A stretch of DNA of 64,000 nt from Candidatus Multivoradales bacterium (GTDB lineage Bacteria > Acidobacteriota > Thermoanaerobaculia > Multivoradales > JAHEKO01). The DNA lies in contig CBDCXM010000002.1 in assembly GCA_965223855.1 (NCBI GenBank), positions 64,001-128,000 on the forward strand. The letters are read 5' to 3'. The notes beneath the pieces are model-generated. The model did not search any database and had not been told where the DNA came from. It saw only the letters and a list, made by a program, of their open reading frames with translations. The position numbers were made by a program, and so were the translations under genes. This document shows positions 28,180 through 61,420 of this stretch, one piece after another (positions within the stretch are counted from its first letter, which is position 1; each line of letters opens with the position of its first letter).

Positions 28180-29499
28180 TCAGGGCACCGTGACCGACCA
28201 TGCCGAGGTATCGCCGGACTCGAACCCGTCCGAGAAGACCGGCGGGAGTCGGTAGATCCAGGCGGTACCGTGGGGTTCGAACAGCACGTTGTTGGAGTTG
28301 CCGATGACTACACGAGAGCCATCGAAGGCGATCGATTCACCAAAGGTGTCGAGGCCGTGGCCGACGGGAGCTCGGAAGCTGCCGACTTCCACCCACTTGC
28401 CGTCGATGTAGCGGTTGTCATAGACGATGCCTCTCAGGATGTCGTTCCCTTGGCCGCTTTCACCGCCTACTAGGGCCATGTTGCCTCTCAGTGCCACCGC
28501 AGTGCCGTAGAAGCGACCATTGTTGGCAGCGTCAGAGGCCAGCAGCTGCTGCTCCTCTGTCCAAACACCATTGGAGCGGCGGAAGACGTAGGCAGCGCCT
28601 TGGGTCGATTGCCCGCCGGAAACATGTTGGTCGGCGCCGGCCAGGAGGACGTCGGCGTCGAGAGCCACAGAGCTGCCGAGGTGAGTCGTCGTTCCCGCAT
28701 CCGAGGCTGCGAGTCTCTGCTCCAGGGTCCAGACGCTGTTCTCGAGGGTGTACACGTAGACAGCCCCAGCGTTGTCGCCTCCGGGGCCATCCTGGATGCT
28801 GTCTCCAACCGCGAGAGTCTCGCCATCAAGGGCTACTGACCTCCCAAAGGCGTCACCGAGGCCCAGAGAGGGGTCATAGAGCTTCTGCTGTTCGATCCAA
28901 TGGCTGCCGACCAACTCGAAGACGTAGGCCGCTCCACCAGGACTGGTACCGGAGCCCGCTCTTGACGCCCCAACCAGGAGACGTGTCCCTTCCAGATCCA
29001 TAGACCAACCAAAGGCGTCCTGCTCGTCCCCGTCAGAACTGCGGATCTTCGCAAGCTCGACCCAGACTCCCCCGACACCGCGCCGAAAGTAGTAGGCACT
29101 GCCCTGTTGGACCTCCTCATCGTCCGCCATTGCGCCGACGATCGCGATATCGCCGTCAATAGCTACCGAGAAGCCGAAGAGATCGTCCTCCGCTCCATCG
29201 GAGGCGGTCAGCATCGCCTCTTCGACCCAGGTGTCTCCATCACGCCTGAAGATCCAGGCGGCACCCTGGGAGTCGTTGTCACCGATGTCAGCGTGAAACG
29301 CACCCACGATGGCCAGGTCGCCACTCAGATCGACCGCCTCGCCGAAGCTCGACTGAGACTCCTGGTCTTCACCAAAGAGCCTCGCTTCGTCCTCCCAGAG
29401 CGGCCCAGATCCGGAGGCGAGGACTGGGGGCAAAGCGATCGAGGAGGCGATCAGCATTCCCGCAAGGGAGTACCCGCTTCTATGGATCGCAGTTCCCAT
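28180..29499 (-). CDS. FG-GAP repeat beta-propeller protein with C-terminal DGFESGD tail
   Basis: Repeated FGxSVAxDGDxxxVGA...GAAYVF units; ends VFSDGFESGDTSAWSVTVP. Confidence 0.9.
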   Translation of the reverse strand: MGTAIHRSGYSLAGMLIASSIALPPVLASGSGPLWEDEARLFGEDQESQSSFGEAVDLSGDLAIVGAFHADIGDNDSQGAAWIFRRDGDTWVEEAMLTASDGAEDDLFGFSVAIDGDIAIVGAMADDEEVQQGSAYYFRRGVGGVWVELAKIRSSDGDEQDAFGWSMDLEGTRLLVGASRAGSGTSPGGAAYVFELVGSHWIEQQKLYDPSLGLGDAFGRSVALDGETLAVGDSIQDGPGGDNAGAVYVYTLENSVWTLEQRLAASDAGTTTHLGSSVALDADVLLAGADQHVSGGQSTQGAAYVFRRSNGVWTEEQQLLASDAANNGRFYGTAVALRGNMALVGGESGQGNDILRGIVYDNRYIDGKWVEVGSFRAPVGHGLDTFGESIAFDGSRVVIGNSNNVLFEPHGTAWIYRLPPVFSDGFESGDTSAWSVTVP

Positions 29500-29657
29500 T
29501 GCCAACGTCCAGTTGCACCTCAGGGCAGGTCGATGTTGCCATGGATGGCGCTTCCTGAGACGGACCAGTGGGCTACCTCCAGCGCCGAGACACCCGTGGC
29601 CGGACCCGCGTCGAGAGCACCAGGCGGATCGCCGGGTGGGCTCTCGAGAACGTCGGG

Positions 29658-30599
29658 CTAGGAGGACTCGCTTGCCGCGGCCGGTCGAGGGCGGTCCGCT
29701 TCCGAAACCGTTGTCTTCGTCGTTCGATGGATCGGTCCGCTGCTTTGCGGGCCCGAGAAGAAGCCGAGGAGAAGCGGTACCGGCTCCTCACCGCTGCGCG
29801 CGATGATCCACTCACAGGCACGCACGCAGTCTCCGCACTCGAGGCAGTGATTGCGCCCGGGAGCTTCGGCGATCGAGATGCCGGGGCGCTCGCCGGTGGG
29901 AGCGAAGAGGTCTCGAGGGGCGAGCTCGACAGGGCAGACGTTGTCGCAGGCGTCGCAGTCGATGCAGGTCTCGGCCTCGTTGCGGAAGTGGACGCCGAAC
30001 CAGTGGGCAGGGGAGACGAACGAGTAGTAGAGCCCGATCGGGCAGGTGGTCATGCAGAAGCGCCACCGCCACCACCGGCCGTGCGCGTAGCAGACGAGCG
30101 TCAGCGCGATCGCCGCCGCTCCGGCTGCGGCGGAAGCGCCGGGACCGGCGGTCGCCAGGGAGCGGGGATCGACCCACCACGTCAGGACCGACACGGCAAG
30201 GGCGGCTGAGAAGCCGAGGGCGGCGAGCCGGGTGCGCGCTCTCGAACGGCCGCGACGCTGAGGCACCTCGAGCGCCTCGCCGAAACGCGAAAGCTGCCCG
30301 ATCGGACAACCCCAGCCACAGAAGAGCCGTCCGCCGACGAGGTTGACGAGGAAGGTCGCCACATAGAACGCGCCGATCGCGACGACGACTCCCGCGAAGG
30401 CGTTGCGAGCGGAGGTCGGTTCGAAGAGAAGCCGATGCCGTCCCCCGAGCAGGTCGAGCCGTGCCAGCCCGCTCGAGGGCACGGCGAAGAGCACGGCGAG
30501 CGTGACAGCCATACCGCCCGCGCGAAGGATGTCGTAGCGATGGGGGCTCACCCGCAGGGCGCCGAGCAGACGCCGGCGAAGCGGTGTGGTGCGGGCCAT
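29658..30599 (-). CDS. Membrane 4Fe-4S binding protein, CcoG/FixG/NapH-like
   Basis: GRLFCGWGCP, FCMTTCP, CIDCDACDNVCP and CLECGDCVRAC motifs. Confidence 0.85.
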   Translation of the reverse strand: MARTTPLRRRLLGALRVSPHRYDILRAGGMAVTLAVLFAVPSSGLARLDLLGGRHRLLFEPTSARNAFAGVVVAIGAFYVATFLVNLVGGRLFCGWGCPIGQLSRFGEALEVPQRRGRSRARTRLAALGFSAALAVSVLTWWVDPRSLATAGPGASAAAGAAAIALTLVCYAHGRWWRWRFCMTTCPIGLYYSFVSPAHWFGVHFRNEAETCIDCDACDNVCPVELAPRDLFAPTGERPGISIAEAPGRNHCLECGDCVRACEWIIARSGEEPVPLLLGFFSGPQSSGPIHRTTKTTVSEADRPRPAAASESS

Positions 30600-30605
30600 G
30601 GAGTG

Positions 30606-30677
30606 ACGCTAGCAGCGGTGCGGGGTCGCCCACCCACCCGCTCGGGTGGTGTGCAGCTTCCGCCGCGCTGCTAGCTT
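30606..30677. promoter_or_regulatory. Back-to-back extended -10 promoters forming an inverted repeat
   Basis: gctagcagcg (30608-30617) and cgctgctagc (30666-30675); reads TGcTAGCGT on minus and TGcTAGCTT on plus; inner hairpin ccaccc/gggtgg. Confidence 0.5.
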
Positions 30678-30712
30678 GCGCACATTCTTCGAGCCCTTAC
30701 CTGGGAGTCCGC

Positions 30713-32331: not shown

Positions 32332-32398
32332 TGATGACGACGATCCGTCGACCGAACCCGGGAACCGATCCCGGACTTCCGCCCGGGGTAGCGAAGCG

Positions 32399-33844
32399 AT
32401 GACCGCGACTGCCGAAGCTCTGTCGCCCTCCGCCGTCGGGACACCGCTCTCGAACCGAACGCTCGTCCGCTGGCACCTGTGTGCCGGTGTGACCTGGCTG
32501 GCGATCGCGCTCGTGGCCGGGTTGCTGTATTCGCTGCAGCTGCTGCAGCACTGGCCGCTGCCGAAGATCGCAACGCTGTCGCCGGGCCGGATCCGAATGG
32601 TGCACACGAACCTGATCGCCTTCGGCTTTCTGACGAACTCGTTCCTCGCGATGCTCTACTGGACGGTGCCGCGACTCACCGGGCGGCGCGTCGCCTCCAA
32701 CGGTCTCGGCTGGATCATCTTCGGCGCCTGGAACCTGATCATTCTCGGCACCTGGGTCGGCCTCCACATCGGCGAGGCCCAGGCGATCGAGTGGGGCGAG
32801 ACGCCGGTGTGGATCGATCCGCTGGTCGTCGTGGGCGCGATCCTCGTGTGGATCCAGTTCTACCGGCCGATCGTCAAGACGACGGAGCGGTCCCTGTACG
32901 TCTCGTTGTGGTACTTCACCGCGGGCTTCATCTGGCTCGGGCTGACCTACATCATGGGGAACTTTTTCCCCCAGTATCTCGTCGCCGGCAACGCGGCGGG
33001 ACCGCTGCTGGGACTCTACATTCACGACCTGGTCGGCCTGTGGGTGACGCCGATGGGGTGGGGGATGATGTACTTCTTCGTCCCGATCATCCTGCGCAAG
33101 CCGATCTGGTCGCATGCGCTCTCACTCGTCGGTTTCTGGGGGCTCGCCTTCTTCTATCCGCTGCAGGGGGTCCATCACTTCCTCGGCTCGCCGATCCCGA
33201 TGTTCGCGCAGTACAGCGCCGTCATCTCGACGATCGCCGTCGAGATCGTCGTCGCGACCGTGATCATCAACTTCTTCATGACCTGGAAGGGGAGCGAGGG
33301 GACTCTGCAGCGCTCGATCCCGATCCGCTGGTTCTGGGTCGGCGCGCTGTGCTACGCGATCACCTGCCTGCAGTGCGCCTTCCAGGTCACCTTGACCTTC
33401 CAGCAGGTGATCCACTTCACGGACTGGGTCGTGGCCCACGCGCATCTCGTGATGTTCGGGGTCTTCAGCTTCTGGATCTTCGGCATGATCGAGCATCTGT
33501 GGCCGAAGCTGACCGGGAACGAGTGGTGGTCGAGCGGCCTGCGCCGCTGGAGCTTCTGGTGTACCTCGCTCGGGCTGCTGGTGATGTTCGTCACGCTGAC
33601 CGCCGGCGGTCTGATCGAGGGCTTCATGGCGATGAACCTGGTGCCGCGCGAGACGATCCTGACTACGATGCAGCCGTACTGGCTGGTTCGCTCCCTGAGC
33701 GGCGTTTCGATCATGGTCGGTGTCGGTGCACTGCTGACGAACATGGTGCTGACGGCGCGGATCCGGCGCGCGGCCCACGTCGATACCGAGTACGCCCCGT
33801 ACGAGGAGCACGAGAACGAGGAGGTGACGCTTGGAGCGGTTTAG
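32399..33844 (+). CDS. ccoN: cbb3-type (C-family) heme-copper oxidase subunit I, divergent
   Basis: Six His ligands (VHTN, IHDLVG, GVHH, AHAH), helix-VII Tyr (FYPLQGVHH), EWGE and HFTDW. Confidence 0.85.
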   Translation: MTATAEALSPSAVGTPLSNRTLVRWHLCAGVTWLAIALVAGLLYSLQLLQHWPLPKIATLSPGRIRMVHTNLIAFGFLTNSFLAMLYWTVPRLTGRRVASNGLGWIIFGAWNLIILGTWVGLHIGEAQAIEWGETPVWIDPLVVVGAILVWIQFYRPIVKTTERSLYVSLWYFTAGFIWLGLTYIMGNFFPQYLVAGNAAGPLLGLYIHDLVGLWVTPMGWGMMYFFVPIILRKPIWSHALSLVGFWGLAFFYPLQGVHHFLGSPIPMFAQYSAVISTIAVEIVVATVIINFFMTWKGSEGTLQRSIPIRWFWVGALCYAITCLQCAFQVTLTFQQVIHFTDWVVAHAHLVMFGVFSFWIFGMIEHLWPKLTGNEWWSSGLRRWSFWCTSLGLLVMFVTLTAGGLIEGFMAMNLVPRETILTTMQPYWLVRSLSGVSIMVGVGALLTNMVLTARIRRAAHVDTEYAPYEEHENEEVTLGAV

Positions 33845-34520
33845 CTTCGTCTTCCTGGTGGCAGGGATCGGATTCTTCGCCATCGCCTTTGTCGCCAGCG
33901 CCTGGATCCCGATGCTCCCGGTGCAGCACCTCGAGGTGCGCACGGTCGAGCAGCTGGCGGCCGGGCAGCCGCTCGAGTGGCACGAGCTCAAAGACCAGTA
34001 TCCGGAGGCGTTCGAAGCCGCCTTCGGAGGCATGAGCGACGAAGCCGCCTTCGCCGAGGCACTGAGGGTCGGCCACAAGACCTACGTCGGCGAGGCGTGC
34101 TGGCACTGTCACAGCCAGCAGGTGCGGCCGTGGGGCAACGACGAGGCTCGCTACGGGCGTCGCGCCTTCCCGGAGGAGTACCACAACGAGCTCAACATGC
34201 CGCCGCTGTGGGGAACCCGCCGGATCGGGCCCGACCTGAGCCGCAGGGGCGGACGGCAGTCGAACGACTGGCACGTTGCCCACTTCTACCACCCGCCCGA
34301 CGTCAACCCGGTCAGCGTGATGCCGAGCTACCCGTGGTTCCTCGAGGAGGACGGCGTGACCCCGAACAAGACCGGTTTGTCGATCATCGCCTACGTTCAG
34401 TGGCTCGGCAGTTGGGTCGAGACGATCGACGAGACGGTCTACGAGATCGATGCGATCGAGCAGCGCTACCCGGCCCCCGACCTGACCGCCGCCGTGGGTG
34501 AAGCCGGGGGTGAAGGATGA
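33831..34520 (+). CDS. ccoO: cbb3 oxidase subunit II (monoheme)
   Basis: CWHCHSQQVRP, WGTRRIGPDLSR.GG and SVMPSY motifs. Confidence 0.9.
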   Translation: MERFSFVFLVAGIGFFAIAFVASAWIPMLPVQHLEVRTVEQLAAGQPLEWHELKDQYPEAFEAAFGGMSDEAAFAEALRVGHKTYVGEACWHCHSQQVRPWGNDEARYGRRAFPEEYHNELNMPPLWGTRRIGPDLSRRGGRQSNDWHVAHFYHPPDVNPVSVMPSYPWFLEEDGVTPNKTGLSIIAYVQWLGSWVETIDETVYEIDAIEQRYPAPDLTAAVGEAGGEG

Positions 34521-34888
34521 GCGCCGTCCGTCCCGCCGAGGGGCCCCGCGGGGTCGCTCCCTCGCCGCAGCCCTCGGATCTTTCGCCCCGCGGCAGAGCG
34601 TTCCTGTGGGCGTTCTCCATAGCGATGATCCTGGTGGCCGGGTCCGCCTTCGTCCTCAAGCTGATCGAATTCACGACGACGGCGACCCGCGAAGGCACCG
34701 GAGCTCTCGCGTCTTTCCTGATCCCGGTGCTCAACTACCTGCTCGTCGCGGCCGGCTTCTTCTGTCTCTTCCTGTGGGCCTACTTCCGGGGCCACTATCG
34801 CGACGTCGAGGGACCGAAGTACAGGATGCTGGAGCTGGCGAGCGAGGTCGATCGCGCCGAGCGCCAGGGAGGAGGAACAGATGGCTGA
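34517..34888 (+). CDS. CcoS/FixS-like two-TM maturation protein
   Basis: FLWAYFRGHYRDVEGPKYRML matches the CcoS pattern FLWAxxxGQxDDxxxPxxRxL. Confidence 0.7.
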   Translation: MSAVRPAEGPRGVAPSPQPSDLSPRGRAFLWAFSIAMILVAGSAFVLKLIEFTTTATREGTGALASFLIPVLNYLLVAAGFFCLFLWAYFRGHYRDVEGPKYRMLELASEVDRAERQGGGTDG

Positions 34889-35030
34889 GACTCCGGAACG
34901 AAAGCCCTTCCGCCGCCACAAGTACCTCGACTACAAGGGGTACGACTTCCCGTGGTACGCGTCGCTCATCTGGATCTCGTTCTTCATCGGCGGGCTGATC
35001 TACTTCGTCCGCTTCGTGCTGTTGGAGTGA
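34881..35030 (+). CDS. 49-aa single-TM protein (CcoQ or FixP N-terminus-like)
   Basis: Strong SD GGAGGAGG; MAETPERKPFRRHKYLDYKGYDFPWYASLIWISFFIGGLIYFVRFVLLE; absent from the ORF track. Confidence 0.75.
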   Translation: MAETPERKPFRRHKYLDYKGYDFPWYASLIWISFFIGGLIYFVRFVLLE

Positions 35031-35037
35031 TCGGGTG

Positions 35038-37245
35038 ATGGCGACGTCGGGGGAGGAAGGGGCGACCCCGACGGCGTCGTGTGTCCAGTGCGGCCTGCCC
35101 GTGCGGCGGCCTGCGAAGAAGTCCGGCGGGAGTGCACTCGCGTTCTGCTGTCTGGGGTGCGCGGTCGTCCACCGGCTCGCGCTTCCCTCGATGCAAGGGG
35201 GAGGGACGGGGAGCGGCTCGACCGTACTGCTGCGTCTCGGGCTCGGCATCTTCCTGACCCTCAACGTGATGGTGGCGAGCTGGCTCTCGTACTCCAGCGA
35301 GATCCTGGGCGTCGAGCCGGCGGCCGGCGGCGAGTCCGCCCTGGCGGCGATGGCGGCGTACCTGGCGATGACGCTGACGACGTGCGTCGTCGCACTTCTC
35401 GGCGTCCCGTTGCTCGTCGATTCGGTGAGGGCACTGGTTCTCGAGCGTCGCCTCGACGCGCAGTTGCTGGTGGTTCTCAGCGTCTTCTCGGCCTTCGTTC
35501 TGAGCGTCGTGCACACCGTGCGCGGCAGCGGGTCGCTCTACTTCGACACCGCGGCGCTGGTGCTGGTAATCGTGACTCTCGGAGCGCAGATGGAGGCGAG
35601 CGCCCGTCGGCGTGCCGGGGCTCATGCGCGGCGGCTGCTCGTCGACTTGCCCTCCGGCGCCAGGGTGTGGCGTGACGGCGCGTGGGATGAGGTGCCGCCG
35701 TCCGAACTCGAGGTGGGGGAGCGGGTGCAGATCCCGGCGGGTGAGACGGTGGCGGTCGACGGCGTCGTCGAGGAGGGCGAGAGCCAGGTCGACGAGGCCT
35801 GTCTCACCGGAGAGTCGCGACCTCGCTTCGTCGCAGCGGGAGACGCGCTGCTGGCGGGGGCGCAGAACTTCGACGGTCGTCTCGTCGTCCGGGTCGGACG
35901 GCCGGCGGCCGACACGGTGCTCGCCCAGATGGAGCGGTCGCTTCGACAGGCCCGCGGCTCGCGACCCCCGGTGCAGCGACTCGCCGACCGCATCGCCGCG
36001 ATCTTCGTGCCCGGAGTCGTCGTCCTGGCGCTGTCGCTGCTGGTCGTGCTCTGGGCGCGTGGAAGTGCGGCCGAAGGCCTGATCCGTGCGTTGAGCGTGC
36101 TGCTGATCGCCTGCCCGTGCGCTCTGGGGCTGGCAGCTCCGCTGGCGAGTTGGGTCGGCCTGCGACGAGCCGCCCGGCTCGGAGTGCTCGTCGACTCCGC
36201 CGCGACGCTCGAGCGCGCGGCGGCGGTCGACCGGCTGTTCGTCGACAAGACGGGCACGCTCAGCGTTCCCGACCCGGCGCTCGACTCGATCGTCACCGCC
36301 GAGGGTCTCTCTCGCGGCGAGGCGCTATCGATGGCGGCGGCACTCGAGACGGCGAGCCGCCATCCTGTGGCCGCCGCGGTGCTCGAGGCCGCCGCGGCCG
36401 CGGGGACTCGTCCCTGCGAGGTCGAGCGGGCCCGCCAGGTCGTGGCGCGAGGCGTCGAAGGTCGGATCGACGGCCGGAAGGTGAGGCTGGGGAGTGCGCG
36501 CTGGGCACGAGAGCACGGTGTCGACCCCGGGCGGCTGACCGGCGCCGTCGATGCCGACTCGGGTTCGGAGGGCTCCGCTGCGGATGGGAAAGAAGGGGAG
36601 GGTCTGGTTCTGTTCGACGACCGACCGCTGGCGGTGTTCGAACTGGCGGAGCGGCCTCGTCCGGACGTCGTTCCCATGCTCCGGCAACTGCACGCGACCG
36701 GCGTCGAAGTCAGACTCCTCAGCGGCGACGAGGAGAGCAGAGTTCGGGCGTTCGCCGAGCGCTTCGGCCTGCAGGCACAGGGAGAGCTGAGCTCTGAGGA
36801 CAAGCTCGCAGTGGTTCGGGAGGCGGCGTCCCGCTCGGGTGGACGCGGCGCGGTCGCCATGCTCGGCGACGGAGTCAACGACGCCGCGGTCCTGGCGGGT
36901 GCGGACGTCGGGATCTCGGTCGGCTCGGCGAGCGACCTGGCGCGCCGGGCCGGCAACGTGAGGTTGGTGGGCGACCGGCTGACTGCGGTGCCCGAGCTGT
37001 TGACTCTGGCACGCGACGTGCGCCGGAGAATTCGCTGGAACCTCGCCTTCGCCTTCGGCTTCAACTCGGTCGGAGTGACCCTTGCGGCCTTCGGTGTGCT
37101 GACTCCGGTCTTCGCTGCGCTGGCGATGCTCCTGTCGAGCCTGGCGGTGCTGAGGATCTCGACGCGCGCCCCGGCCGCTCCCTCGCCGGAGTCCGACGAA
37201 GTGGCCCTCTGGCCTCTGCCGGCCGCACCCGAGGCGACCGGATGA
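35038..37245 (+). CDS. ccoI: Heavy-metal P1B-type ATPase, CcoI/FixI-like
   Basis: CxxC and FCCxGC at the N-terminus; LTGES, CPCALG, DKTGT, HP and GDGVND motifs. Confidence 0.85.
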   Translation: MATSGEEGATPTASCVQCGLPVRRPAKKSGGSALAFCCLGCAVVHRLALPSMQGGGTGSGSTVLLRLGLGIFLTLNVMVASWLSYSSEILGVEPAAGGESALAAMAAYLAMTLTTCVVALLGVPLLVDSVRALVLERRLDAQLLVVLSVFSAFVLSVVHTVRGSGSLYFDTAALVLVIVTLGAQMEASARRRAGAHARRLLVDLPSGARVWRDGAWDEVPPSELEVGERVQIPAGETVAVDGVVEEGESQVDEACLTGESRPRFVAAGDALLAGAQNFDGRLVVRVGRPAADTVLAQMERSLRQARGSRPPVQRLADRIAAIFVPGVVVLALSLLVVLWARGSAAEGLIRALSVLLIACPCALGLAAPLASWVGLRRAARLGVLVDSAATLERAAAVDRLFVDKTGTLSVPDPALDSIVTAEGLSRGEALSMAAALETASRHPVAAAVLEAAAAAGTRPCEVERARQVVARGVEGRIDGRKVRLGSARWAREHGVDPGRLTGAVDADSGSEGSAADGKEGEGLVLFDDRPLAVFELAERPRPDVVPMLRQLHATGVEVRLLSGDEESRVRAFAERFGLQAQGELSSEDKLAVVREAASRSGGRGAVAMLGDGVNDAAVLAGADVGISVGSASDLARRAGNVRLVGDRLTAVPELLTLARDVRRRIRWNLAFAFGFNSVGVTLAAFGVLTPVFAALAMLLSSLAVLRISTRAPAAPSPESDEVALWPLPAAPEATG

Positions 37246-37913
37246 GGCTGGGCGACGGACCGGAGTTCTGGGCGGCGACGTCGGCGCTCTTCGTGGCAGG
37301 CCTCGTCGGCAGCCTTCACTGTGTCGTCATGTGCGGTCCGCTGCACGCGGCCGCTGCCCGCCTGCAGGCGAAGACGACGCAGAGCCCTCTGTCGGGCGCC
37401 CTCGTCTTTCAGCTCGGGAGAGTGTGGACCTACGGCCTCCTGGGCCTGCTGGTGGGCCTGGCAGGGGTTCGTCTGGAAGCGGGTTTGCAGACGATCGGCT
37501 GGCTGCGACCGGTCGCCGTCGCCGCGGGGCTGCTGATGGTGGCGGCAGGCGTGACGATCGCACTGCGTGGCGGCACCTGGCTGCCGCAGCGCTGCCTCTC
37601 CTGGTTGGGCTCGCGGCGCGGCTTCGGCGGCGCCCTGCGTTCGCAGCCGAAGGTCGTCCTCGGAGCCCTCTCGGGCCTGGTTCCGTGCGGGCTGGTCTAC
37701 GCCGCACTTCTGGTTGCTGCGACTGCGGCGAAGCCGTGGCAGGCCGCGGCGGCGATGGTGGCCTTCGGTGCCGGAACGCTCGTACCCCTCACGGCACTGA
37801 CGGTCGGCTCCATGCGACTTCCCTCGAGGTGGGCGGCGCGGGAATCCGCCGTGACCTCGGGACTGCTGATGGTGGCCGGCAGCCTCCTGCTATTCAGGGC
37901 GTGGGCGGGCTGA
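37242..37913 (+). CDS. DsbD_2/TauE-SafE-like membrane protein (cbb3 maturation)
   Basis: GSLHCVVMCG, PCGLVY and FGAGT motifs. Confidence 0.85.
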   Translation: MRLGDGPEFWAATSALFVAGLVGSLHCVVMCGPLHAAAARLQAKTTQSPLSGALVFQLGRVWTYGLLGLLVGLAGVRLEAGLQTIGWLRPVAVAAGLLMVAAGVTIALRGGTWLPQRCLSWLGSRRGFGGALRSQPKVVLGALSGLVPCGLVYAALLVAATAAKPWQAAAAMVAFGAGTLVPLTALTVGSMRLPSRWAARESAVTSGLLMVAGSLLLFRAWAG

Positions 37914-38113
37914 CGAGGCTCGCGGCCGAGCCGCACGACTTCCACGACGACCGGACAGCCCGCGAGTGGTTGGGGACCCCTCGAGCGTCCAACCGACCGG
38001 CCTGCCTGGATCCCCTGGCCCGAACCGTCGGGTCCGGCAGCCGAGCGCCTTCGGAGCTATGCTCGCAGCCCGGGGGAGGGAACCCTGGGGCGGCAGCTGC
38101 CGGCTGTCTACCT

Positions 38114-38647
38114 TCAGTCCTCTGTGAGACCGAGTCGCTCCCTCACGACACCCTCGAGACTCGTCAGCCCGGACTCGAGCCCGATCTCGAGCGCTTCTGC
38201 GCCGCTCCGGCCGTCGACGAAGTGCGCCTCGAGCGCGAACAGGCCGCCGACGCGGTTGCCACTGCCGCAGTGAACGAGGGTCGGTCGCGGGAGCTCGTCG
38301 AGCAGGCGGGCGAACTCCCGCGCCGACTCCTCGGTGAGTCCTGCAGCGCCCTCGATCGGGAGCTCGAAGTACTCGAGGCCGAAGCGCTCGACCTCTTCTC
38401 CACGAATCGACGATTCTTCGCCGCCCCGCAGGTTGAGGACCGAGGCGTAGCCGGCGTCGGCGAGCCCGGCGAGCGCGTCCTCGGTCGGTTGCCCGCCGAC
38501 GAGGATCCCGCCTTCGAGCAGTTTGCCGTTCGGCACGAGAGCCGTGACGTCCGGGTCGGTTGCGTCCTCGTCGGCATGAGCCGCCGCCAGCATCGTGACC
38601 GCGAAGACCAGGGAGACGAAGAGGGAGAGGCGTCGCGTCAGGTTCAT
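38114..38647 (-). CDS. Periplasmic Blh/DUF442 phosphatase-fold sulfurtransferase-like protein
   Basis: Signal peptide; GGQP, VLNLR and HCGSGNR (Cx5R). Confidence 0.75.
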   Translation of the reverse strand: MNLTRRLSLFVSLVFAVTMLAAAHADEDATDPDVTALVPNGKLLEGGILVGGQPTEDALAGLADAGYASVLNLRGGEESSIRGEEVERFGLEYFELPIEGAAGLTEESAREFARLLDELPRPTLVHCGSGNRVGGLFALEAHFVDGRSGAEALEIGLESGLTSLEGVVRERLGLTED

Positions 38648-38766
38648 CCCGTGACGCTATCGCACGACGGCCCAGAGCCGAACTCGGGGGGCGAGATCCC
38701 GCCCTGCCGGCGTCTCCCGGCGGGCGCCTCCGACACTCTTCCGAGACTCGGTTATATTCGCTCCAC

Positions 38767-40308
38767 ATGGAGCCCGCTTCCGGAGCGTCGACACCCAGCC
38801 CTCGCTGGGCCAAGGTGATCGACCATGAGACCTGCATCGGCTGCCACGCCTGTTCGACGGCGTGCAAGTCCGAGAACGAGGTCCCGCTGTCGGTCAACCG
38901 GACCTACGTCAAGTACGTCGATGTGGGCGAGTTTCCCGAGGCGCGCCGCGCCTTTCAGGTGACGCGCTGCAACCAGTGCTCCGACGCCCCGTGCGTGACG
39001 GCGTGCCCGACCTCGGCGATGTACGCCCGCGAGGACGGCATCGTCGACTTCGACAAGTCGATCTGCATCGGCTGCAAGGCGTGCATGGCGGCCTGCCCGT
39101 ACGACGCGATCTTCATCAACCCGGAGGACCACTCGGCGGAGAAGTGCAACTTCTGCGCGCACCGGATCGACGTCGGTCTCGAGCCTGCGTGCTCGGTGGT
39201 CTGCCCGGTGGAGGCGATCGTCGTCGGGGATCTCGAAGATCCCACGAGCCGGGTCGCACAGATGGTCCATCGCCAGCCGGTGACGGTGCGCCGCCCGGAG
39301 AAAGAGACCGGGCCGAAGCTCTTCTACACCGGGGCGCACCAGGCGACGGTGGATCCCCTGGCGGCGCGCCGGCCGGAGGGCGGGCTCTTCATGTGGTCGG
39401 AGCAGCTGGGCCCCGAGGCGGGGCCGGAGATGCTCGTCGCCGGGCATCCCGGCCACGGCAACTCCTCGGCGGCTGCGCTCCTCTCCTACGATGCACCCCA
39501 CCGGATTCCCTGGGACTGGAAGGTCAGCCTCTACACGCTGACCAAGTCGATCGCCGCCGGCGTGATGCTGGCAGCCGCCTTCGTGCCGGCAGGGCTGGGC
39601 GACCACCTGTGGCAGTGGGGGGTCCCTCTGCTCGGTCTGGCGTTCCTCGCGCTGACCGGCCTGCTCCTGATCGCCGATCTGGAGCACCCGAAGCGCTTCT
39701 ACCTCATCTTCACCCGCCCGCAGTGGAAGAGCTGGCTCGTGCGTGGCGCCTTCGTGATCGCCGCCTACGGTGCCTTTCTCACCCTGCATCTGGCGTCGTC
39801 GCTCTTCGGCGCGACGTTGGCACGAGGGTGGATCACGGCCGGAGTGCTGACCGGCGGGGCGACCGCCGTCTACACGGCGTGGCTCTTCGCTCAGGCGAAA
39901 GCCCGTGATCTGTGGCAGTCGCCGCTGCTGCCACCCCATCTGCTCGTCCAGGCGCTGGTCGCCGGTAGCGCTACCTTGCTGTTGTGGGCGACCGCCTGGG
40001 CACCGGAGGCGAGCGGGCGGCTGGCCGTCGTCCTGGCGGTCAGCAGCGCGCTCCATCTCGTGCTGGTGGCGACGGAGCTCACCCTGCCGCACTCGACGGC
40101 GCACGTCTCGCTCGCCGTGAGGGAGATGACGCGAGGCCGCTACCGCCGCTGGTTCCGGGCCGGGCTCACCCTCGGGGCGCTCGGTCTGGTGTCGCCGTGG
40201 GTCGAACCGTCGTGGCTGATGGCGGTGCCGGCGTGCGGCGCCCTCGTCGGCCTCGGTCTTTACGAACACGCCTACGTCCAGGGCGGGCAGGCGGTGCCGC
40301 TGGCATGA
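38767..40308 (+). CDS. Fusion of a four-cluster 4Fe-4S protein and an NrfD/PsrC-type membrane anchor
   Basis: CIGCHAC, RCNQC...PC...CP, CIGCKAC and KCNFC motifs; C-terminal DLEHPKRF..SWLVRGA with TM helices. Confidence 0.9.
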   Translation: MEPASGASTPSPRWAKVIDHETCIGCHACSTACKSENEVPLSVNRTYVKYVDVGEFPEARRAFQVTRCNQCSDAPCVTACPTSAMYAREDGIVDFDKSICIGCKACMAACPYDAIFINPEDHSAEKCNFCAHRIDVGLEPACSVVCPVEAIVVGDLEDPTSRVAQMVHRQPVTVRRPEKETGPKLFYTGAHQATVDPLAARRPEGGLFMWSEQLGPEAGPEMLVAGHPGHGNSSAAALLSYDAPHRIPWDWKVSLYTLTKSIAAGVMLAAAFVPAGLGDHLWQWGVPLLGLAFLALTGLLLIADLEHPKRFYLIFTRPQWKSWLVRGAFVIAAYGAFLTLHLASSLFGATLARGWITAGVLTGGATAVYTAWLFAQAKARDLWQSPLLPPHLLVQALVAGSATLLLWATAWAPEASGRLAVVLAVSSALHLVLVATELTLPHSTAHVSLAVREMTRGRYRRWFRAGLTLGALGLVSPWVEPSWLMAVPACGALVGLGLYEHAYVQGGQAVPLA

Positions 40309-43299
40309 CGAAGCCTGAGTCGAAGAACTCGGCCTCGACCGAGCCGGGGCGGGGCGACCTGAGATCGAAGGTCTCGGCAGCACGGGACGCGACCGAGGCT
40401 CGAGGAGAGACCTTCTACCCCGGCGCCTCCCGGATTCACCTCGCCGCCTTCCCGCCGAAGGAACGGTGGGACGACTGGGTCGAGCTCGATTCGAAGGCCT
40501 GGCCGGAGAGAGTCGAGCGACGCTACATGCTGGTGCCGACGACCTGCTTCAACTGCGAGTCGGCGTGCGGCCTGCTGGCCTACGTCGACAAGGACTCGCG
40601 GCGGATCCGCAAGTTCGAAGGCAATCCGGAGCACCCGGGGTCGAGGGGACGCAACTGCGCCAAGGGCCCGGCGACCCTCAACCAGATCACCGACCCCGAC
40701 CGGATCCTTCACCCGCTGCGTCGGGCGGGCGCCCGCGGAGAGGGGAAGTGGGAGCGCATCTCCTGGGACGAGGCGCTCGACCTGCTGGCGGAGCGGATTC
40801 GCAAGGCGATGCGGGAGAAGCGCCACAGCGAGCTGATGTACCACGTCGGTCGACCGGGAGAGGACGGCTTCACCGAGCGGATCATGGCCGCCTGGGGGGT
40901 CGACGGCCATAACTCCCACACCAACATCTGCTCCTCGGCAGCGCGTGCGGGCTACCAGTTCTGGTGCGGCATCGATCGCCCGAGCCCCGACCACGCCCGC
41001 GCACGGGTGATCTACCTCATCAGCTCGCACCTCGAGACGGGGCACTACTTCAATCCTCACGCGCAGCGGATCATGGAGGCGAAGGCGAACGGCGCGAAGC
41101 TGATCGTCCTCGACACCCGGCTGTCGAACACCGCGACCCACGCCGACCACTGGCTGGCGACGATCCCGGGATCGGAGGCGGCGGTCAACCTGGCGATCGC
41201 CTCGTTCCTGATCCGGACAGCGACGCTACGACCGCGAGTTCGTCCGTCGATGGTGGAACTGGGAGGAGTACCTCGAGGCGGTGCATCCCGGGCTAGAGGT
41301 TTCCTTCGAGAGTTTCGAGCGCATGCTCGAGGCGGAGTACGAGCCGTACACCTTCGAGTTCGCGGCCGCGGAGTCGGGGATCGACGCCGCGACCCTCGAG
41401 CAGGTCGCCGAGACCGTGGCCGGCGCCGGCACCCGTCTGGCGACCCACAACTGGCGCAGTGCCTCGTCGGGCAACGAGGGGGGCTGGCAGGTCGCGCGCA
41501 CCCTGTTCCTGCTCAATGCGCTCACCGGCTCGATCGCGACGCCCGGAGGCATGCATCCGAACGCCTGGAACAAGTTCGTGCCGCGCCCGATCCGCCTCCC
41601 CCGGCACCCGGACTACTGGAACACACTCACCTGGCCCGAGGAATGGCCGCTGACGATGTACGAGGTGTCGTTCCTGCTGCCGCACATGGTGCGCCGCGAG
41701 GGGGCGCGGCTCGACACCTATTTCACCCGCGTCTACAACCCGGTCTGGACCAACCCGGACGGCTTCTCGTGGCTCGAGATGCTGACCGACGAAGAGCGCG
41801 TCGGCCTCCACGTGGCGTTGACGCCGACCTGGAACGAGACGGCGTACTTCGCCGACCTCGTGCTGCCGATGGGGCACGCCTCGGAACGCCACGACATCCA
41901 CTCCTACGAGACCCACGCCGGGCAGTGGATCGGCTTCCGTCAGCCGGTGCTGCGGGCGGCTGCCGAGCGGATGGGAGAGTCGGTGGGCGACACCCGGGAC
42001 GTCAATCCCGGCGAGGTGTGGGAGGAGAACGAGTTCTGGCTCGAGCTGTCGTGGCGCATCGACGAGGACGGTTCGCTCGGTATCCGTGAGTTCGTCGAAT
42101 CGGAAGTCGAGCCGGGACAGCGACTGTCGGTCGACGAGTACTACGGACACATCTTCGAGAACTCGGTCCCGGGTCTTCCCGAACGGGCCGCCGAAGAAGG
42201 ACTGACTCCGCTGGCGTACATGCGTCGCTACGGCGCCTTCGAGATCGCAAACGAGGTCGAGACCCCCTACGAGCAGCCGGTCCCCACAGAGGAGCTCGAA
42301 GACGTGGCCGAAGACAGGTACGGCCGCGTCTTCACCCGAGCCGCGGCGCCGCCGCCTCTCAACGTCGTCCCGACCGGCGCTCCCGGCGGGGACGCCGACG
42401 GCCGCCGGCCGGTCGGCGTGCGGGTCGACGGCGACGTCCTGCGCGGGTTTCCCACTCCGAGCGGTCGACTCGAGTTCTACTCGCCGACTCTGGCGGCGTG
42501 GGGGTGGGGCGACGTCGCGGTGCCGACCTACATGCGGTCCCACGTCCATCCTGATCGGATGGACGACGATCAGCACGTCCTGATCTCGACTTTCCGCCTG
42601 CCGGTCCAGATTCACACCAGGAGCGCGAACTCGAAGTGGCTCGATGAGATCGCTCACACCAACCCGCTGTGGATTCACACTTCACACGCGGCGGCGATCG
42701 ACGTGCGGACGGGAGACCTGGTGAGAGTCGAGACCGAGATCGGGCACTTCGTCGTCAAGGCGTGGGTCACCGAGGGGATCCGGCCCGGCGTGGTCGCCTG
42801 CTCCCATCACATGGGGCGCTGGAAGCTCAGTGAGGGCATCATCGAGGAGGGAGCGCGTGAGATCGCTCCCGGCAACGGCGAGCGCAGCGGGGAAGGACAG
42901 CGTCAGCTCATGGCGACGGCTCGCGTCGGCCGCGCCGGTAGCGAGTGGTCCCTCGAGCGCCGGCGTGGGGCTCGGCCGTTCGCCAGCTCGGACCCCGACA
43001 CCAGTCGAATCTGGTGGACGGACGTCGGGGTGCACCAGAACCTCACCTTCCCGGTTCACCCCGATCCGGTCAGCGGGATGCACTGCTGGCATCAGGCGGT
43101 CCGGGTTCGCAAGGCTGAGCCCGGAGACGCCTACGGCCAGATCAGCGTCGATACCGCGCGATCGCGAGAGGTGTTCGAGGAGTGGCTGGCCCGTACCCGT
43201 GGCGCCAGGGAGCACTCGCCCGACGGTTCGCGTCGCCCGTCCTGGCTGATCCGCCCGGTCAAGCCGGTCGCAGCCGCCTACCGCCTCGACGAATCCTGA
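40305..43299 (+). CDS. DMSO-reductase-family molybdopterin oxidoreductase (Psr/Sre-like), frameshifted near 41220
   Basis: CFNCESAC..C cluster motif and HTNICSS. The frame continues after a +1 shift into RYDREFVRRWWNW and ends in a molybdopterin-binding domain (NPLWIH, GIRPGVV). Confidence 0.85.
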
Positions 43300-43308
43300 G
43301 TCGCGGGC

Positions 43309-49680: not shown

Positions 49681-49714
49681 AAGAGCGGGCCCGCTTGTTA
49701 GGGTGTCGTGCACC

Positions 49715-52914: not shown

Positions 52915-54795
52915 TCAGGGAATGACGTTCGACCAGGCGCTGGTGTCGCCGGACTCGAAGCCGTCCTCGAAGATCTCGGCCGCGATGTCGACCATCGCCA
53001 TCGTCGTCTCCATGTCGTGCGGCGACGAGCGGTCGATGTTCTCCCACAGCCAGTAGAGGTACTCTCCGCGGCTGCGCTCGCCGGGGTCGAGCCCGATCGG
53101 CCAGCTCCATCCGGGCGAGCGGGTGATGCAGTCGTCGTCGAAGTTCTGGACGACGGCCTCGTTCTGCAGGAACTCGATGTACTCCTTGCTCGAGTTCTGG
53201 AACCGCAGTTCGACCGACACGGTCAGAGGACTGGCGGCGTCGCCCGGCAGCGGGATCGAGTAGTTGGTGATGTCGTAGTTGACGAGAACGCCGGAGCCGG
53301 GACTCGTTTCCGGGTAGGTGTATCCGACCGGCTGGGTTTCGAGATCGTCGCCACCCGTGAAGCCTAGCGGCGGGATTCGGTTGTCGAGCTTGATGCAGTC
53401 GTTGAGCACGAAGTGAAACTGTTCGACCCCCGAAGGATTGGTGTGGTCGCAGGTGTTCATGCCGTTGGCGTTCCAGATGCCGCGCTGGGTCTCGTAGACC
53501 TTGACGTCGGAGTCACGGGTGAGCTCGCCGGTCGACGGGTCGTAGGCACCGCTCTCGTAGATCAGGTCGTTGTCGTCGCCGCGGACCTCGACATGGATCC
53601 ACATCCGCCGCCCTTCGACGTAGCCGGTCGGCAGCTTGTGGCCGCTCAGGTTGGTGACCTTGACTTCGAGGTCGAGCGTGCCGCCGGGGGAGATCGCCGG
53701 CGGGGCCGTGAGTTCGAGGCTGGCGGCGCTCTCGAGCATCGCCTCGGCGCGGGCGATGGTGTCGGTGAAACCCGTACCGTTGTCGATCGTGGCGCCGTAC
53801 TGGTCCTCCAGCAGCGCCGGCACCCACGTGTTTCCGCCGACGAAATGGTGCTGCGGCATGTCGCCGGCGCGATCGATGTTCTCGAAGATGCAGGCGTAGG
53901 AATCGGGGTCCGTGGCGTCCGGCATGTGACAGTTCTGACAGGTCGCCTCCGCGCTGCCGCCGATCCGGTATTCGCTCTGATCCCACTCGTTGTAGGTGCG
54001 CTCGATCGGGTAGAGGATCCCGGTGTCGACGCCGCTCTCGTCGATCAGGGTGAGGACCGGGTTGGTCACGTTGTGACAGGTGGCGCAGATCTGCGAACCC
54101 TCGTGGTAGGCGGAATACGCCCACTCGTGCGGGGGCTCCGGCGGACTGGCGTAGTCGTAGGGGCCGTGGCGACACGGCTCGCTGCCGCCGGGACAGACCT
54201 CGTCGTCGATCCAGTACTCGGCGTTCTCGAGGTAGTTCCCTTCCTCGCCGGGCGGCGGTGAGTCGTTGATCACCATCCGATGGCAGAGGTGACAGGTCAC
54301 CCCCTCGAAGTCGTTGGCGGTCGTCTCGTCGATGTTGCCGACGAGGCCGCAGCCGTCGGCGTCACCGACGCCGATCACCATGCCGCCCTTGTCGGTCTCC
54401 GCACTTGCCCTACCGTCGAGCCAGGCCTTCGGAGCGTGGCAGCGCAGGCAGTATTCGCCGATTCCGGGAAGATCGGCGTTGGCGACGTCGAGGGCCGCCC
54501 AGAAGACCGGATCGCGAGTGGAGTTGGCCATCATCGACCCCGACCAGGTATTGAAGGGCTCGACGTCGTCCTTCTCGTAGTCGCCGTGACAGTTGCGGCA
54601 GAAGCCGGGGGCGGTGTACGCGTACTCGATCTCGAAGGTCAGATCGCCGGGCTGGGTCGCCCTGGGCGTGAAGGGGCCGGCGTCCGCCAGTGCCGACCAG
54701 CCGAGGACGGCGAAGAGGCCGCACAGCACCCCGAGGGCCCATGATCTGAGGATGGAACGGTGCCGTGAGCGACCTGAGTGCGATGCGTGCTGCAA
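52915..54795 (-). CDS. Secreted pentaheme cytochrome c with C-terminal DGFESGD tail
   Basis: CRNCH, CLRCH, CHLCH, CATCH, CQNCH; GHKLPTG; ends IFEDGFESGDTSAWSNVIP. Confidence 0.9.
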   Translation of the reverse strand: MQHASHSGRSRHRSILRSWALGVLCGLFAVLGWSALADAGPFTPRATQPGDLTFEIEYAYTAPGFCRNCHGDYEKDDVEPFNTWSGSMMANSTRDPVFWAALDVANADLPGIGEYCLRCHAPKAWLDGRASAETDKGGMVIGVGDADGCGLVGNIDETTANDFEGVTCHLCHRMVINDSPPPGEEGNYLENAEYWIDDEVCPGGSEPCRHGPYDYASPPEPPHEWAYSAYHEGSQICATCHNVTNPVLTLIDESGVDTGILYPIERTYNEWDQSEYRIGGSAEATCQNCHMPDATDPDSYACIFENIDRAGDMPQHHFVGGNTWVPALLEDQYGATIDNGTGFTDTIARAEAMLESAASLELTAPPAISPGGTLDLEVKVTNLSGHKLPTGYVEGRRMWIHVEVRGDDNDLIYESGAYDPSTGELTRDSDVKVYETQRGIWNANGMNTCDHTNPSGVEQFHFVLNDCIKLDNRIPPLGFTGGDDLETQPVGYTYPETSPGSGVLVNYDITNYSIPLPGDAASPLTVSVELRFQNSSKEYIEFLQNEAVVQNFDDDCITRSPGWSWPIGLDPGERSRGEYLYWLWENIDRSSPHDMETTMAMVDIAAEIFEDGFESGDTSAWSNVIP

Positions 54796-54850
54796 TGGAA
54801 TCCCCTCCCGAAAGGGTTCGAGCCGAATGCCGGGAGGATAGCATCCGGCG

Positions 54851-60132: not shown

Positions 60133-60139
60133 CTTCAGC

Positions 60140-61420
60140 GTGGCAGCGATGTCGACGGCGACGAGGCGGCTGGCGACAAGCATGTCGCTGTCGGTCGCCG
60201 TTTCTCTGTCGTCCGTGACCCCCTCGGCCTCGCAGCAGGTCGCCCTCACGCTCCACGCCACAGGCTTCGACCGGGTGTCGGGGATCGCCCACGCCGGTGA
60301 CGGCTCGGGGCGGCTGTTCGTCGTCGAACGCGACGGACTCGTCTGGGCGCTCGACTCCGGCGGCCAGCGAGGCGTCGATCCGTACCTCGATCTCACGGAC
60401 CGGATTGGGGGGCCTGGCATGGAGCTGGGGTTGCTCGCCCTCGCCTTCGCGCCGGACTTCGAGGCCAGCCGGCGACTGTTCGTCGCCTACACCGACACCG
60501 CGGACGACGTCGTGATCTCGCGGTTCCTCGAGGATGCCGCCGACCCGGCGCACGCCGATCCCGACTCGGAATCGCCGGTCCTCGCCATCCCGCAGCCGAC
60601 CGAGCTTCACAACGTCCACCACCTCGCCTTCGGCCCGGACGGCTATCTCTACGTCGCCTCCGGTGACGGCGGCCCGGCCGGAGACCCGCTCGGCAACGCC
60701 CAGAACCTCGGCGTGCTGCTCGGGAAGATCCTGAGACTCGACGTCGACGTCGCGACCGGCTACTCGATCCCTCCCGACAATCCCTTCATCTCCGTGCCGG
60801 GAGCGCGTGCGGAGATCTGGGCGTACGGGCTCAGGAACCCGGCCGACCTCACCTTCGATAGCGACTCAGGCGACCTGATCCTGACCGACGTCGGCCAGGC
60901 CTCCTGGGAGGAGATCAACCGCCAGCCGGGGACGAGCGGCGGGGGAGAGAATTACGGCTGGCCGTTTCGCGAGGGCTTCGAATGTTTCAACCCGCCGACC
61001 GGCTGCCCGGCGGCCGGTTTCACTCCACCGGTGACGGTCTACCCGCATACCGAAGGACGGTGCGCGGTGATCGGCGTCGGGTGGTCACGCCTCGCCCCGG
61101 AACTGTCGGGCCGGGTCGTCTTCGGAGATTTCTGCACGGGGGGCCTGTCGACAGCCCGTCCCGGTTGTCTCGGATGGCGGCAGACCGAACAGGCCGAGGT
61201 CGTAGGAGGTCTCAGCGCCATCGGACAGGACGAGGCGGGAGAGATCTACGCAGCGGCATGGTCGACCGACGGGAGCGGGGAGTTGTGGCGTCTCGACGGC
61301 GTCACCGGGACGCTCTATGCAGACGATTTCGAGAGCGGCGACCTGGCGGAGTGGTCGGCGTGCCGGGGGGTCGATGCGCCGTCCGCCGAGGTCAGCGGAA
61401 GACGACGTCGATCCCCATAG
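60140..61420 (+). CDS. PQQ-dependent glucose/sorbosone dehydrogenase family protein with DDFESGD tail
   Basis: FGPDGYLY...GDGG, LGKILRLD, PPDNPF, GLRNP and DVGQ..WEEIN motifs; LYADDFESGDLAEWS near the C-terminus. Confidence 0.85.
   Translation: MAAMSTATRRLATSMSLSVAVSLSSVTPSASQQVALTLHATGFDRVSGIAHAGDGSGRLFVVERDGLVWALDSGGQRGVDPYLDLTDRIGGPGMELGLLALAFAPDFEASRRLFVAYTDTADDVVISRFLEDAADPAHADPDSESPVLAIPQPTELHNVHHLAFGPDGYLYVASGDGGPAGDPLGNAQNLGVLLGKILRLDVDVATGYSIPPDNPFISVPGARAEIWAYGLRNPADLTFDSDSGDLILTDVGQASWEEINRQPGTSGGGENYGWPFREGFECFNPPTGCPAAGFTPPVTVYPHTEGRCAVIGVGWSRLAPELSGRVVFGDFCTGGLSTARPGCLGWRQTEQAEVVGGLSAIGQDEAGEIYAAAWSTDGSGELWRLDGVTGTLYADDFESGDLAEWSACRGVDAPSAEVSGRRRRSP

Follow-up and report, generated by a model that had tools for sequence, protein, structure and literature searches.

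We analysed a 64,000-nucleotide stretch of DNA (the window; G000:C2:64001-128000) from a Candidatus Multivoradales genome (G000; 4.52 Mb, 68% GC, 92.5% complete), in which a first-pass annotation had noticed a common C-terminal motif, FxDGFESGDxxxWS, on three exported proteins. As judged by alignment, this tail corresponds to the head of a jelly-roll domain, and a separate gene of the same genome encodes the headless remainder of that domain behind a signal peptide. It is likely, in our view, that a domain has here been split naturally, with the tail as its donor half, and that the headless protein – the ‘catcher’ – captures it and so holds the cargo at the cell envelope.

A conserved tail ends 80 unrelated proteins of one genome

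The three motif copies of the window translate as first described, 12 consecutive identical residues and a final Pro are common to the tails of the FG-GAP propeller and the cytochrome, and the host proteins are indeed unrelated by family assignment (Table 1). The description of the motif as a C-terminal tail stands for the propeller and the cytochrome but not for the pyrroloquinoline quinone (PQQ)-type dehydrogenase, in which it lies 35 residues from the stop. This third copy (61313-61357, plus strand; LYADDFESGDLAEWS) is degenerate: Tyr replaces the first Phe, and it scores 20.0 bits with a hidden Markov model (HMM) of the tail, as compared to at least 30.3 bits for all 80 canonical tails of the genome.

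In these 80 frames of G000 the motif starts exactly 19 residues before the stop codon (consensus IFxDGFESGDTSAWSxTVP); D-16, F-14, E-13, G-11 and W-6 are invariant, and Pro is the last residue in 66. The tail HMM, a test proposed in the first-pass annotation, recovered 13 further variants scoring at least 20 bits, ten of them near the C-terminus and three just behind a signal peptide; one of these three N-terminal copies opens a degenerate intact domain. By gene calling, 86 of 3605 genes (~2.4%) are tagged, and these form 62 sequence groups. Pfam families were assigned at E ≤ 1e-8 to 15 of 30 motif-bearing frames and include FG-GAP, M14 peptidase, GDSL lipase, CHRD, LamG, BNR and DUF2961, among others. 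Two of the 80 frames look like fragments without a signal peptide; a signal-peptide heuristic passes 75 of 80 tailed genes versus 1330 of 2586 control genes and, being lenient, lends weak support to export.

The tail is not a chance pattern, since it recurs in 80 exactly placed frames with invariant residues and since the reversed DNA pattern has 0 matches in the genome as compared to 85–89 for the forward one. Nor is it a mobile DNA repeat, a possible origin that we rejected: synonymous codons vary within the tail (Ser at -12 is AGC in 28, TCG in 24 and TCC in 14 copies) and the DNA downstream of the stop codons is not common between copies, indicating that selection acts on the peptide. Position-by-position counts over the 80 tails describe an acidic, polar, mostly Pro-ended 19-mer. 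Neither a transmembrane helix nor basic residues follow the motif in any of the 80, which bears out the earlier remark that the tail has no membrane helix, and Lys is not among the leading residues at any position.

Searches with the tail itself returned no reader. No Pfam or NCBIfam model covers it in a scan of the three window proteins; no model of the folded C-terminal domain (CTD, ~70–80 residues) of type IX secretion system (T9SS) substrates matched these proteins or 30 further motif-bearing frames (E ≤ 1e-8), and dockerin had no match on the 33 cargo frames scanned. The tail alignment produced chance matches in the PDB (best E 0.12), and the ESM Atlas yielded three weak family leads besides unnamed clusters. 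The 429 open reading frames around 38 tailed loci belong to common families alone (kinases, extracytoplasmic function (ECF) sigma factors, ABC transporters), and a list of barrel-like outer-membrane candidates in G000, none of which was profiled, gave no lead. We found no published account of tail or catcher in a literature whose supplement tables may hold an unindexed mention and whose subscription journals were thinly covered.

The tail aligns with the head of a Cip1-like jelly-roll domain

In viral contigs and Chloroflexi the tail segment opens a domain of ~200 residues, and 24 longer frames that open with the motif still group as one family once 20 residues are cut from their start. A profile built from 16 intact copies matches Cip1 (3zyp; E 1.7e-10, from residue 3) with DGFESG..W aligned with DDFESG..W, so placing the tail on Cip1 residues 3–15. 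The best structural matches of a predicted model of one intact copy are 2zzj, 8q2a, 8q28 and 3zyp. Profile searching of 1.84 billion representatives gave 4625 matches; among the best 150 of these, the head motif is present by strict pattern in 239 of 292 domain copies, most others having a variant or truncated start, and the domain is C-terminal in 86 of 150 proteins. The family of the window's PQQ enzyme itself carries the intact domain in G486 and G127: the homolog from the sister-genus genome G486 (48% identity over 377 aa) has it at the position of the tail. A homolog was present among the fetched sequences, flanking open reading frames included, for 14 of 87 queries. On these alignments, the tail makes up strand one and the calcium loop of a jelly-roll domain of the Cip1/PL20 type.

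The calcium ligands of Cip1 are listed in the accessible text of its structure report (PMC3764139) as Asp5, Glu7, Ser37, Asn40 and Asp206. Our alignment puts Asp5 and Glu7 in the tail and Ser37, Asn40 and Asp206 in the part that forms the catcher; the invariant Glu of the tail corresponds to Glu7, and an invariant Asp of the last strand to Asp206. This pattern suggests a structural calcium site built from N- and C-terminal ligands, which in the split form would be divided between two chains.

The first-pass annotation had held that the docking idea would fail if the motif merely formed the opening strand of a folded domain already known. Such a strand is literally what it is, but this does not refute docking: because the strand stands alone on 80 proteins and the remainder is encoded separately, its origin as a first strand points to the mechanism instead.

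The headless remainder is encoded by a separate gene

With an HMM built from 21 of the 24 intact frames, their first 19 residues removed, we found in G000 a 208-aa signal-peptide protein with a headless domain (G000:C9:733682-734308, outside the window; E 1.4e-5 over nearly the whole model). The only other match is the degenerate intact copy, itself a row of the alignment. The mature part of the catcher begins directly behind its signal peptide, at the point where the tail ends. The protein has no Pfam or NCBIfam family and four close homologs, and is adjoined by glycosyltransferase, sulfatase and membrane-protein genes. Its predicted model (predicted local distance difference test, pLDDT, 82.5) superimposes on 2zzj from chain residue 20 (Z 15.3, root-mean-square deviation (rmsd) 2.7, 174 residues aligned) and on 3zyp from residue 24 (Z 13.7, rmsd 2.8, 161 aligned). 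It ranks 44 of 3298 by codon bias, a rough score based on five reference genes and accordingly weak support. A profile was needed for detection: phmmer with the degenerate in-genome domain alone found no catcher, and a single-protein query recovered the Lysobacterales catcher in 0 of 3 cases; an alignment recovered it.

Conserved catcher positions lie at the predicted tail interface or are glycine and core residues, and nothing in the sequences points to a conserved catalytic set. Lys is absent among the conserved catcher columns, and none of the catcher sequences read carries a tail of its own. Catchers are present in the cultured species Dokdonella koreensis (WP_067644529.1), Dokdonella soli (WP_343786528.1) and Pseudofulvimonas gallinarii (WP_164484042.1), all annotated as hypothetical or uncharacterized, which makes the system testable. 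A catcher subtype with an insertion of ~70–80 residues adjoins a tailed gene in G127 and G498 (L223:467-1429 and L300:1501-2445); the stand-alone catcher of G127 is of this subtype.

Tail and catcher are cut at reciprocal points in two lineages

Thermoanaerobaculia-type tails extend through the Trp and four or five residues beyond it, and the catchers of this lineage start after the Trp and lack it. Lysobacterales tails mostly stop soon after DGFE/D, before the Trp; among the best 30 of 104 Lysobacterales catcher matches, FxDGFE is missing and a starting Trp, aligned with the Trp of intact domains, is kept in 30 of 30. By this comparison, tail and catcher sum to one domain in each lineage. We regard the reciprocal split as the strongest evidence for pairing of tag and catcher, because it is independent of structure prediction.

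Tail and catcher co-occur across genomes

The first-pass annotation suggested profiling for a co-distributed partner, and the headless gene proved to be one in both lineages. The class set comprises 161 genomes, 21 with 5–109 tail matches and 140 with 0–2 (the latter include the unpublished G023, on which no claim rests). The catcher profile matched 30 class genomes, and we read the best locus of each plus one more. A headless signal-peptide gene is present in 20 of the 21 tail-bearing genomes (15 of 16 without the five genomes that contributed rows to the alignment), as compared to 2 of the 140 tail-poor ones (G396 and G408). G531 bears tails and has no headless gene, and the headless gene of G503 is divided between two frames; the eight other class matches fall either on fusions that keep the domain intact (G486, G526) or, weakly, on long proteins.

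A profile without any Lysobacterales sequence detected a small homolog in 11 of 15 tail-rich versus 0 of 15 tail-less Lysobacterales genomes, chosen by tail count. With a wider profile applied to 151 Lysobacterales, catchers were matched in 93 of 99 genomes with at least five tail matches (83 of 89 without the ten seed genomes) and in 11 of 52 with fewer; catcher starts were read for the best 30 of the 104 matches and for two tail-poor ones. The contrast is also seen inside single families (2/2 versus 0/22 in f4; 9/10 versus 1/11 in f9).

The predicted complex places the tail in the catcher

Complex prediction of the tail with a candidate partner, likewise proposed in the first-pass annotation, was run with tail and catcher alignments and yielded ipSAE scores of 0.90, 0.91 and 0.90, the best control reaching 0.03. 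The mark used for this score is attained by 116 of 157 solved pairs and 2 of 215 mismatched pairs, counts that hold roughly for our own alignments. At least 85% of contacts agree between runs, partner pLDDT is at least 77, and the catcher itself is predicted at pLDDT 94–95 with the tail versus 84–85 with control peptides. In the models the first Phe of the tail pairs with catcher residues 180–182, the second Phe contacts V7, 17–19 and D178, and the W-T segment pairs with 31–34. The interface holds five of the eight conserved catcher positions (V32, E41, D178, 182 and R184).

Some catchers carry or adjoin envelope anchors

Four class catchers have SLH-type repeats, one with a Pfam match (G514), one with none at E ≤ 0.01 (G447) and two recognised by eye; the G408 catcher carries Dockerin_1 above cut-off. 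In G000, one regular expression found no SLH proteins. Among the best 30 Lysobacterales catchers, 12 have a C-terminal extension by eye and eight by pattern; Dockerin_1 is the best match for six of eight extensions tested, one of them above cut-off (G282). At four of seven fetched Lysobacterales catcher loci (G342, G339, G298 and G271) the following genes include one for a protein with a hydrophobic and basic tail. Three such proteins match IPTL-CTERM (two above cut-off) and choice-of-anchor D, and one of them, encoded by the second gene after the G271 catcher, also matches cohesin above cut-off; the G342 protein and the small intervening genes have no family match. The catcher-dockerin, cohesin-like and IPTL-CTERM genes are kept in G339 and G298, which have 0–2 tail matches.

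The same order, a catcher-dockerin gene followed by cohesin-like and IPTL-CTERM genes, was read at four Lysobacterales loci (L318:7311-10401, L319:7847-10547, L320:9555-12057 and L322:9614-12929). Judged from gene content, these loci would encode a cellulosome-like chain in aerobic Gammaproteobacteria. Together with the intact domain on the same cargo in sister genera, the anchor fusions support a role of the catcher as an adaptor between cargo and envelope.

Proposed mechanism and alternatives

The ancestral element would be a calcium-binding jelly-roll of ~200 aa (Cip1/X122/PL20-like), present on many exported proteins and often C-terminal. In tail-rich Thermoanaerobaculia-type Acidobacteriota and in Lysobacterales this domain appears to have been split: the cargo would retain the first strand and loop only (19 residues here, about 7–12 in Lysobacterales), and the remainder would usually be left to one gene for a Sec-exported catcher, in G000 the one described above. 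After both have crossed the inner membrane, the tail would enter the catcher; its IF would pair with the last strand, the second Phe would fill the core and W-x-x-T would pair with strand 31–34, thus completing the fold and a calcium site with ligands from both chains. Envelope attachment of the catcher would in some lineages rest on SLH repeats, or on a dockerin with a cohesin/IPTL-CTERM partner; the G000 catcher, which has no such add-on, would be held by another route. One adaptor could in this way display about 90 different enzymes, cytochromes and binding proteins, perhaps at the outer surface rather than in the periplasm.

This mechanism agrees with most of what the first-pass annotation had guessed. 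Its docking tag for a surface scaffold gains a probable reader in the headless jelly-roll protein, the suggested strand donation fits a tail that is the missing first strand of that protein, and the suggested acidic metal binding fits a tail that is the calcium loop of the domain. Docking to a secretion machine, its other suggestion, found no direct support.

Several observations weigh against capture and anchoring by the catcher. Catcher matches are missing from 6 of the 99 tail-rich Lysobacterales and from one of the 21 class genomes that bear tails, and a second query on five catcher-less genomes recovered one probable contig-edge fragment only. Conversely, a catcher match is present in 11 of the 52 tail-poor Lysobacterales and in 2 of the 140 tail-poor genomes of the class; a looser pattern revealed no variant tail in five tail-poor genomes with such a match, indicating that a catcher can be retained where tails are few or absent. 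Since the genomes are related, the co-occurrence counts are not independent. The G000 catcher has no anchor domain by Pfam or NCBIfam, and 18 of the best 30 Lysobacterales catchers end with the domain and carry no anchor. The two halves of a split domain can pass complex prediction by their likeness to the solved 3zyp and 2zzj, so that the models speak to fit and not to function. Finally, according to the accessible text of PMC10916295, two X122 domains bound no plant polysaccharide tested, which weakens the idea that the catcher is a lectin.

It is rather unlikely that the catcher binds the tail as an export adaptor that takes folded cargo across the outer membrane, for example by type II secretion, or as a chaperone protecting it in the periplasm, and provides no lasting anchor. 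G000 does have a second secretin cluster besides a pilMNOPQ-like one, with GspE/F- and pseudopilin-like genes named by eye; many catchers, that of G000 included, have no anchor domain, and the cargo includes heme proteins, which fold in the periplasm. Yet a secretin is also present in the tail-poor G178, the SLH and dockerin fusions and the cohesin/IPTL-CTERM neighbours indicate attachment, and in sister genera the intact domain stays permanently on the cargo. We give little credence to the tail as a processing signal that is cut so that a C25 (PorU/gingipain-like) peptidase or an exosortase joins the cargo covalently to glycan or lipid. Three C25 proteins are encoded in G000 (C8:16055-18664, C9:2931319-2934006 and C9:156946-166767), and glycosyltransferase and sulfatase genes surround the catcher. 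Of the tail-bearing class genomes, 19 of 21 have C25, as do 66 of 99 tail-rich Lysobacterales versus 0 of 41 Lysobacterales lacking both tail and catcher, but C25 is also found in 62 of 140 tail-poor class genomes and is not found in the remaining 33 of the 99. Exosortase (PF09721) has no match in G000, at 92.5% completeness, or in G271, and weak matches in three of five genomes, sortase and rhombosortase not having been searched. The motif also stands behind signal peptides and between domains, where cutting would not anchor the protein.

It is highly improbable that the tail acts on its own as a calcium-binding or self-associating peptide, or is a domain remnant, and that the headless gene encodes an unrelated surface protein. 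Catcher matches in 13 tail-poor genomes and degenerate copies such as the third of the window would fit such a history, but remnants would not be expected to show five residues invariant over 80 unrelated proteins, co-occurrence of tail and catcher and, above all, reciprocal split points in two phyla.

A second candidate pair of split-domain tags

About 15 secreted-type proteins of ~200–250 aa in G000 end in PVELxxFxV, and two proteins (L344, C9:863141-865266; L345, C8:12663-13238) have an Ig-like segment that lacks this strand. Among 17 longer homologs of the Ig segment, a VELxSF strand directly precedes the segment in 4 and not in 11, and 2 are not judgeable; of the 11, six are fused to C25 and four to rotamase domains. 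The headless Ig-like acceptor has no PDB sequence match. In G276 the gene order is catcher, PVEL protein, headless-Ig protein, and at least five PVEL matches occur in nine class genomes, seven of which are rich in the first tail. At Dokdonella-type loci (L311, L315 and L316), PVEL and headless-Ig genes follow the jelly-roll catcher.

We therefore offer, tentatively and at somewhat less than even chances, a broader reading: two phyla may build their envelope proteome with natural split-domain tags, the jelly-roll pair and a parallel PVELxxF/headless Ig-like pair. In it, one abundant jelly-roll catcher, locked to its tags by calcium, displays up to about 190 proteins per genome, possibly as a lattice-forming surface layer. 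If true, strand complementation would be a general way for bacteria to sort proteins without enzymes, and the mutually orthogonal variants of different lineages could serve as tools.

Taxonomic distribution of the tail

Pattern counts are bimodal across the phylum (240 genomes), with 50–90 in three relatives and 0–8 in all but two others. A scan of the wider collection gave at least 122 loci, 80 of them named. Among the matches listed, the 19-residue tail belongs to Thermoanaerobaculia, ‘Holophagae’ and other Acidobacteriota, and a short form (IFxDGFE/D plus few residues) to Lysobacterales (Dokdonella, Rudaea, Aquimonas), where it also stands between domains and behind signal peptides; the matches in other taxa are mostly chance. 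Five named genomes of Dokdonella, Aquimonas and Thermoanaerobaculia have 42–194 pattern matches versus 0–3 for controls. We rejected G085, G049 and G097 as carriers despite 24, 16 and 8 matches to the loose pattern: most of the 16 loci inspected hold short or implausible frames, and none of these genomes yielded a catcher.

The viral contigs (L037-L068) encode intact domains as well as tail-only proteins (e.g. L044, L047 and L056), the tail-only ones being either phage genes or host flanks. A Roseiflexaceae locus (L124) encodes both a protein with a 13-residue truncated tail and an intact domain, possibly an early stage of the split in Chloroflexi. In Lysobacterales, tailed genes often lie beside genes for ECF sigma factors and Ser/Thr kinases as read by eye (L078, L089, L101 and L103).

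Features of the window

Table 1. Cargo genes and tail copies in the window.
Feature	Position	Strand	Evidence
Cargo 1, secreted FG-GAP beta-propeller, canonical tail at end	28180..29505	-	Pfam FG-GAP_2 E 4.5e-76, 7 stretches; signal-like N-terminus
Canonical 19-residue putative donor-strand tail and stop, cargo 1	28180..28239	-	translates to VFSDGFESGDTSAWSVTVP-stop
Cargo 2, secreted five-heme c-type cytochrome, canonical tail at end	52915..54795	-	five CxxCH motifs; Cytochrome_C7 above cut-off
Canonical 19-residue putative donor-strand tail and stop, cargo 2	52915..52974	-	translates to IFEDGFESGDTSAWSNVIP-stop
Cargo 3, glucose/sorbosone (PQQ-type) dehydrogenase	60140..61420	+	Pfam GSDH E 7.9e-35
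Degenerate tail copy, cargo 3, motif start 35 residues before stop	61313..61420	+	tail HMM 20.0 bits

Many sulfatase-like proteins, in the window (23317-28027) and genome-wide, have a common end motif, L-x-A-L-G-Y-L; ALGYL occurs within the last 40 residues of 16 called proteins, and several such sulfatase-like genes flank the catcher. Positions 32399-43299 hold what we take, reading the sequence by eye, to be a cluster for a cbb3-type oxidase and, after it, genes for ferredoxin and molybdopterin enzymes, and from 61737 to the end of the window lies the start of a 1875-aa gene whose product presumably resembles bacterial alpha-2-macroglobulin.

Comparison with known systems

The readers of known C-terminal sorting tags are transpeptidases or translocons. 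Like LPXTG, PEP-/IPTL-CTERM, GlyGly-CTERM and the T9SS CTD, the tail is a homologous C-terminal tag on many unrelated signal-peptide proteins with one candidate reader gene; unlike them, it has no transmembrane helix, basic end or folded CTD, it also occurs away from the C-terminus, and its putative reader is a non-enzymatic headless domain. The T9SS translocon protein SprA (PF14349) was matched in 0 of 5 genomes, G000 included, and likewise in 0 of 14 controls, a search with no positive control. If a tag is read, as appears to be the case here, by what is left of the domain it came from, secreted proteins would be addressed on a new principle; this could account for the retention of many hydrolases and redox proteins at the cells of these soil and water bacteria.

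The fold, the N-terminal DDFESG..W and, by alignment, the calcium site are those of Cip1 (3zyp), X122 (8q28, 8q2a) and the PL20 glucuronan lyase (2zzj), but these are single intact chains, and the catcher gives no sign of a conserved catalytic set. As in SpyTag/SpyCatcher, engineered from a split CnaB2 domain, a short domain strand serves as a portable tag that may be N-terminal, internal or C-terminal. The split proposed here is natural, however, with two lineage-specific cut points, and neither tail nor catcher conserves a Lys that could form an isopeptide bond, which makes a non-covalent, calcium-assisted link probable. A natural tag of 7–19 residues and a ~20-kDa catcher with two cut points make a candidate protein-engineering tool.

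Chaperone–usher donor-strand complementation likewise completes an incomplete beta-sandwich with a strand of another chain, as sequence and prediction suggest here. By its best fold matches the catcher is a jelly roll and not an Ig-like pilin; donor and acceptor sit on different kinds of protein and form no polymer, and the donors are about 90 unrelated proteins. No chaperone or usher genes were recognised beside the catcher in 13 loci that were not fully annotated and to which no dedicated search was applied. The closest parallel in purpose is cohesin–dockerin, in which a short appended tag brings many unrelated secreted enzymes to a non-catalytic, cell-attached partner with the involvement of calcium; some catchers are themselves tied in via dockerin, cohesin or SLH. 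A dockerin on the partner and a nearby cohesin gene are present in some lineages but not for the G000 catcher. However, a dockerin is a folded domain of ~65 residues that docks on the face of a complete cohesin, while the tail has 7–19 residues and would complete the fold of its partner, and the catchers read are single-domain proteins rather than tandem scaffoldins. As proposed, the tail–catcher pair recruits cargo as cohesin–dockerin does, using the chemistry by which a donated strand completes a fold, and belongs to neither family.

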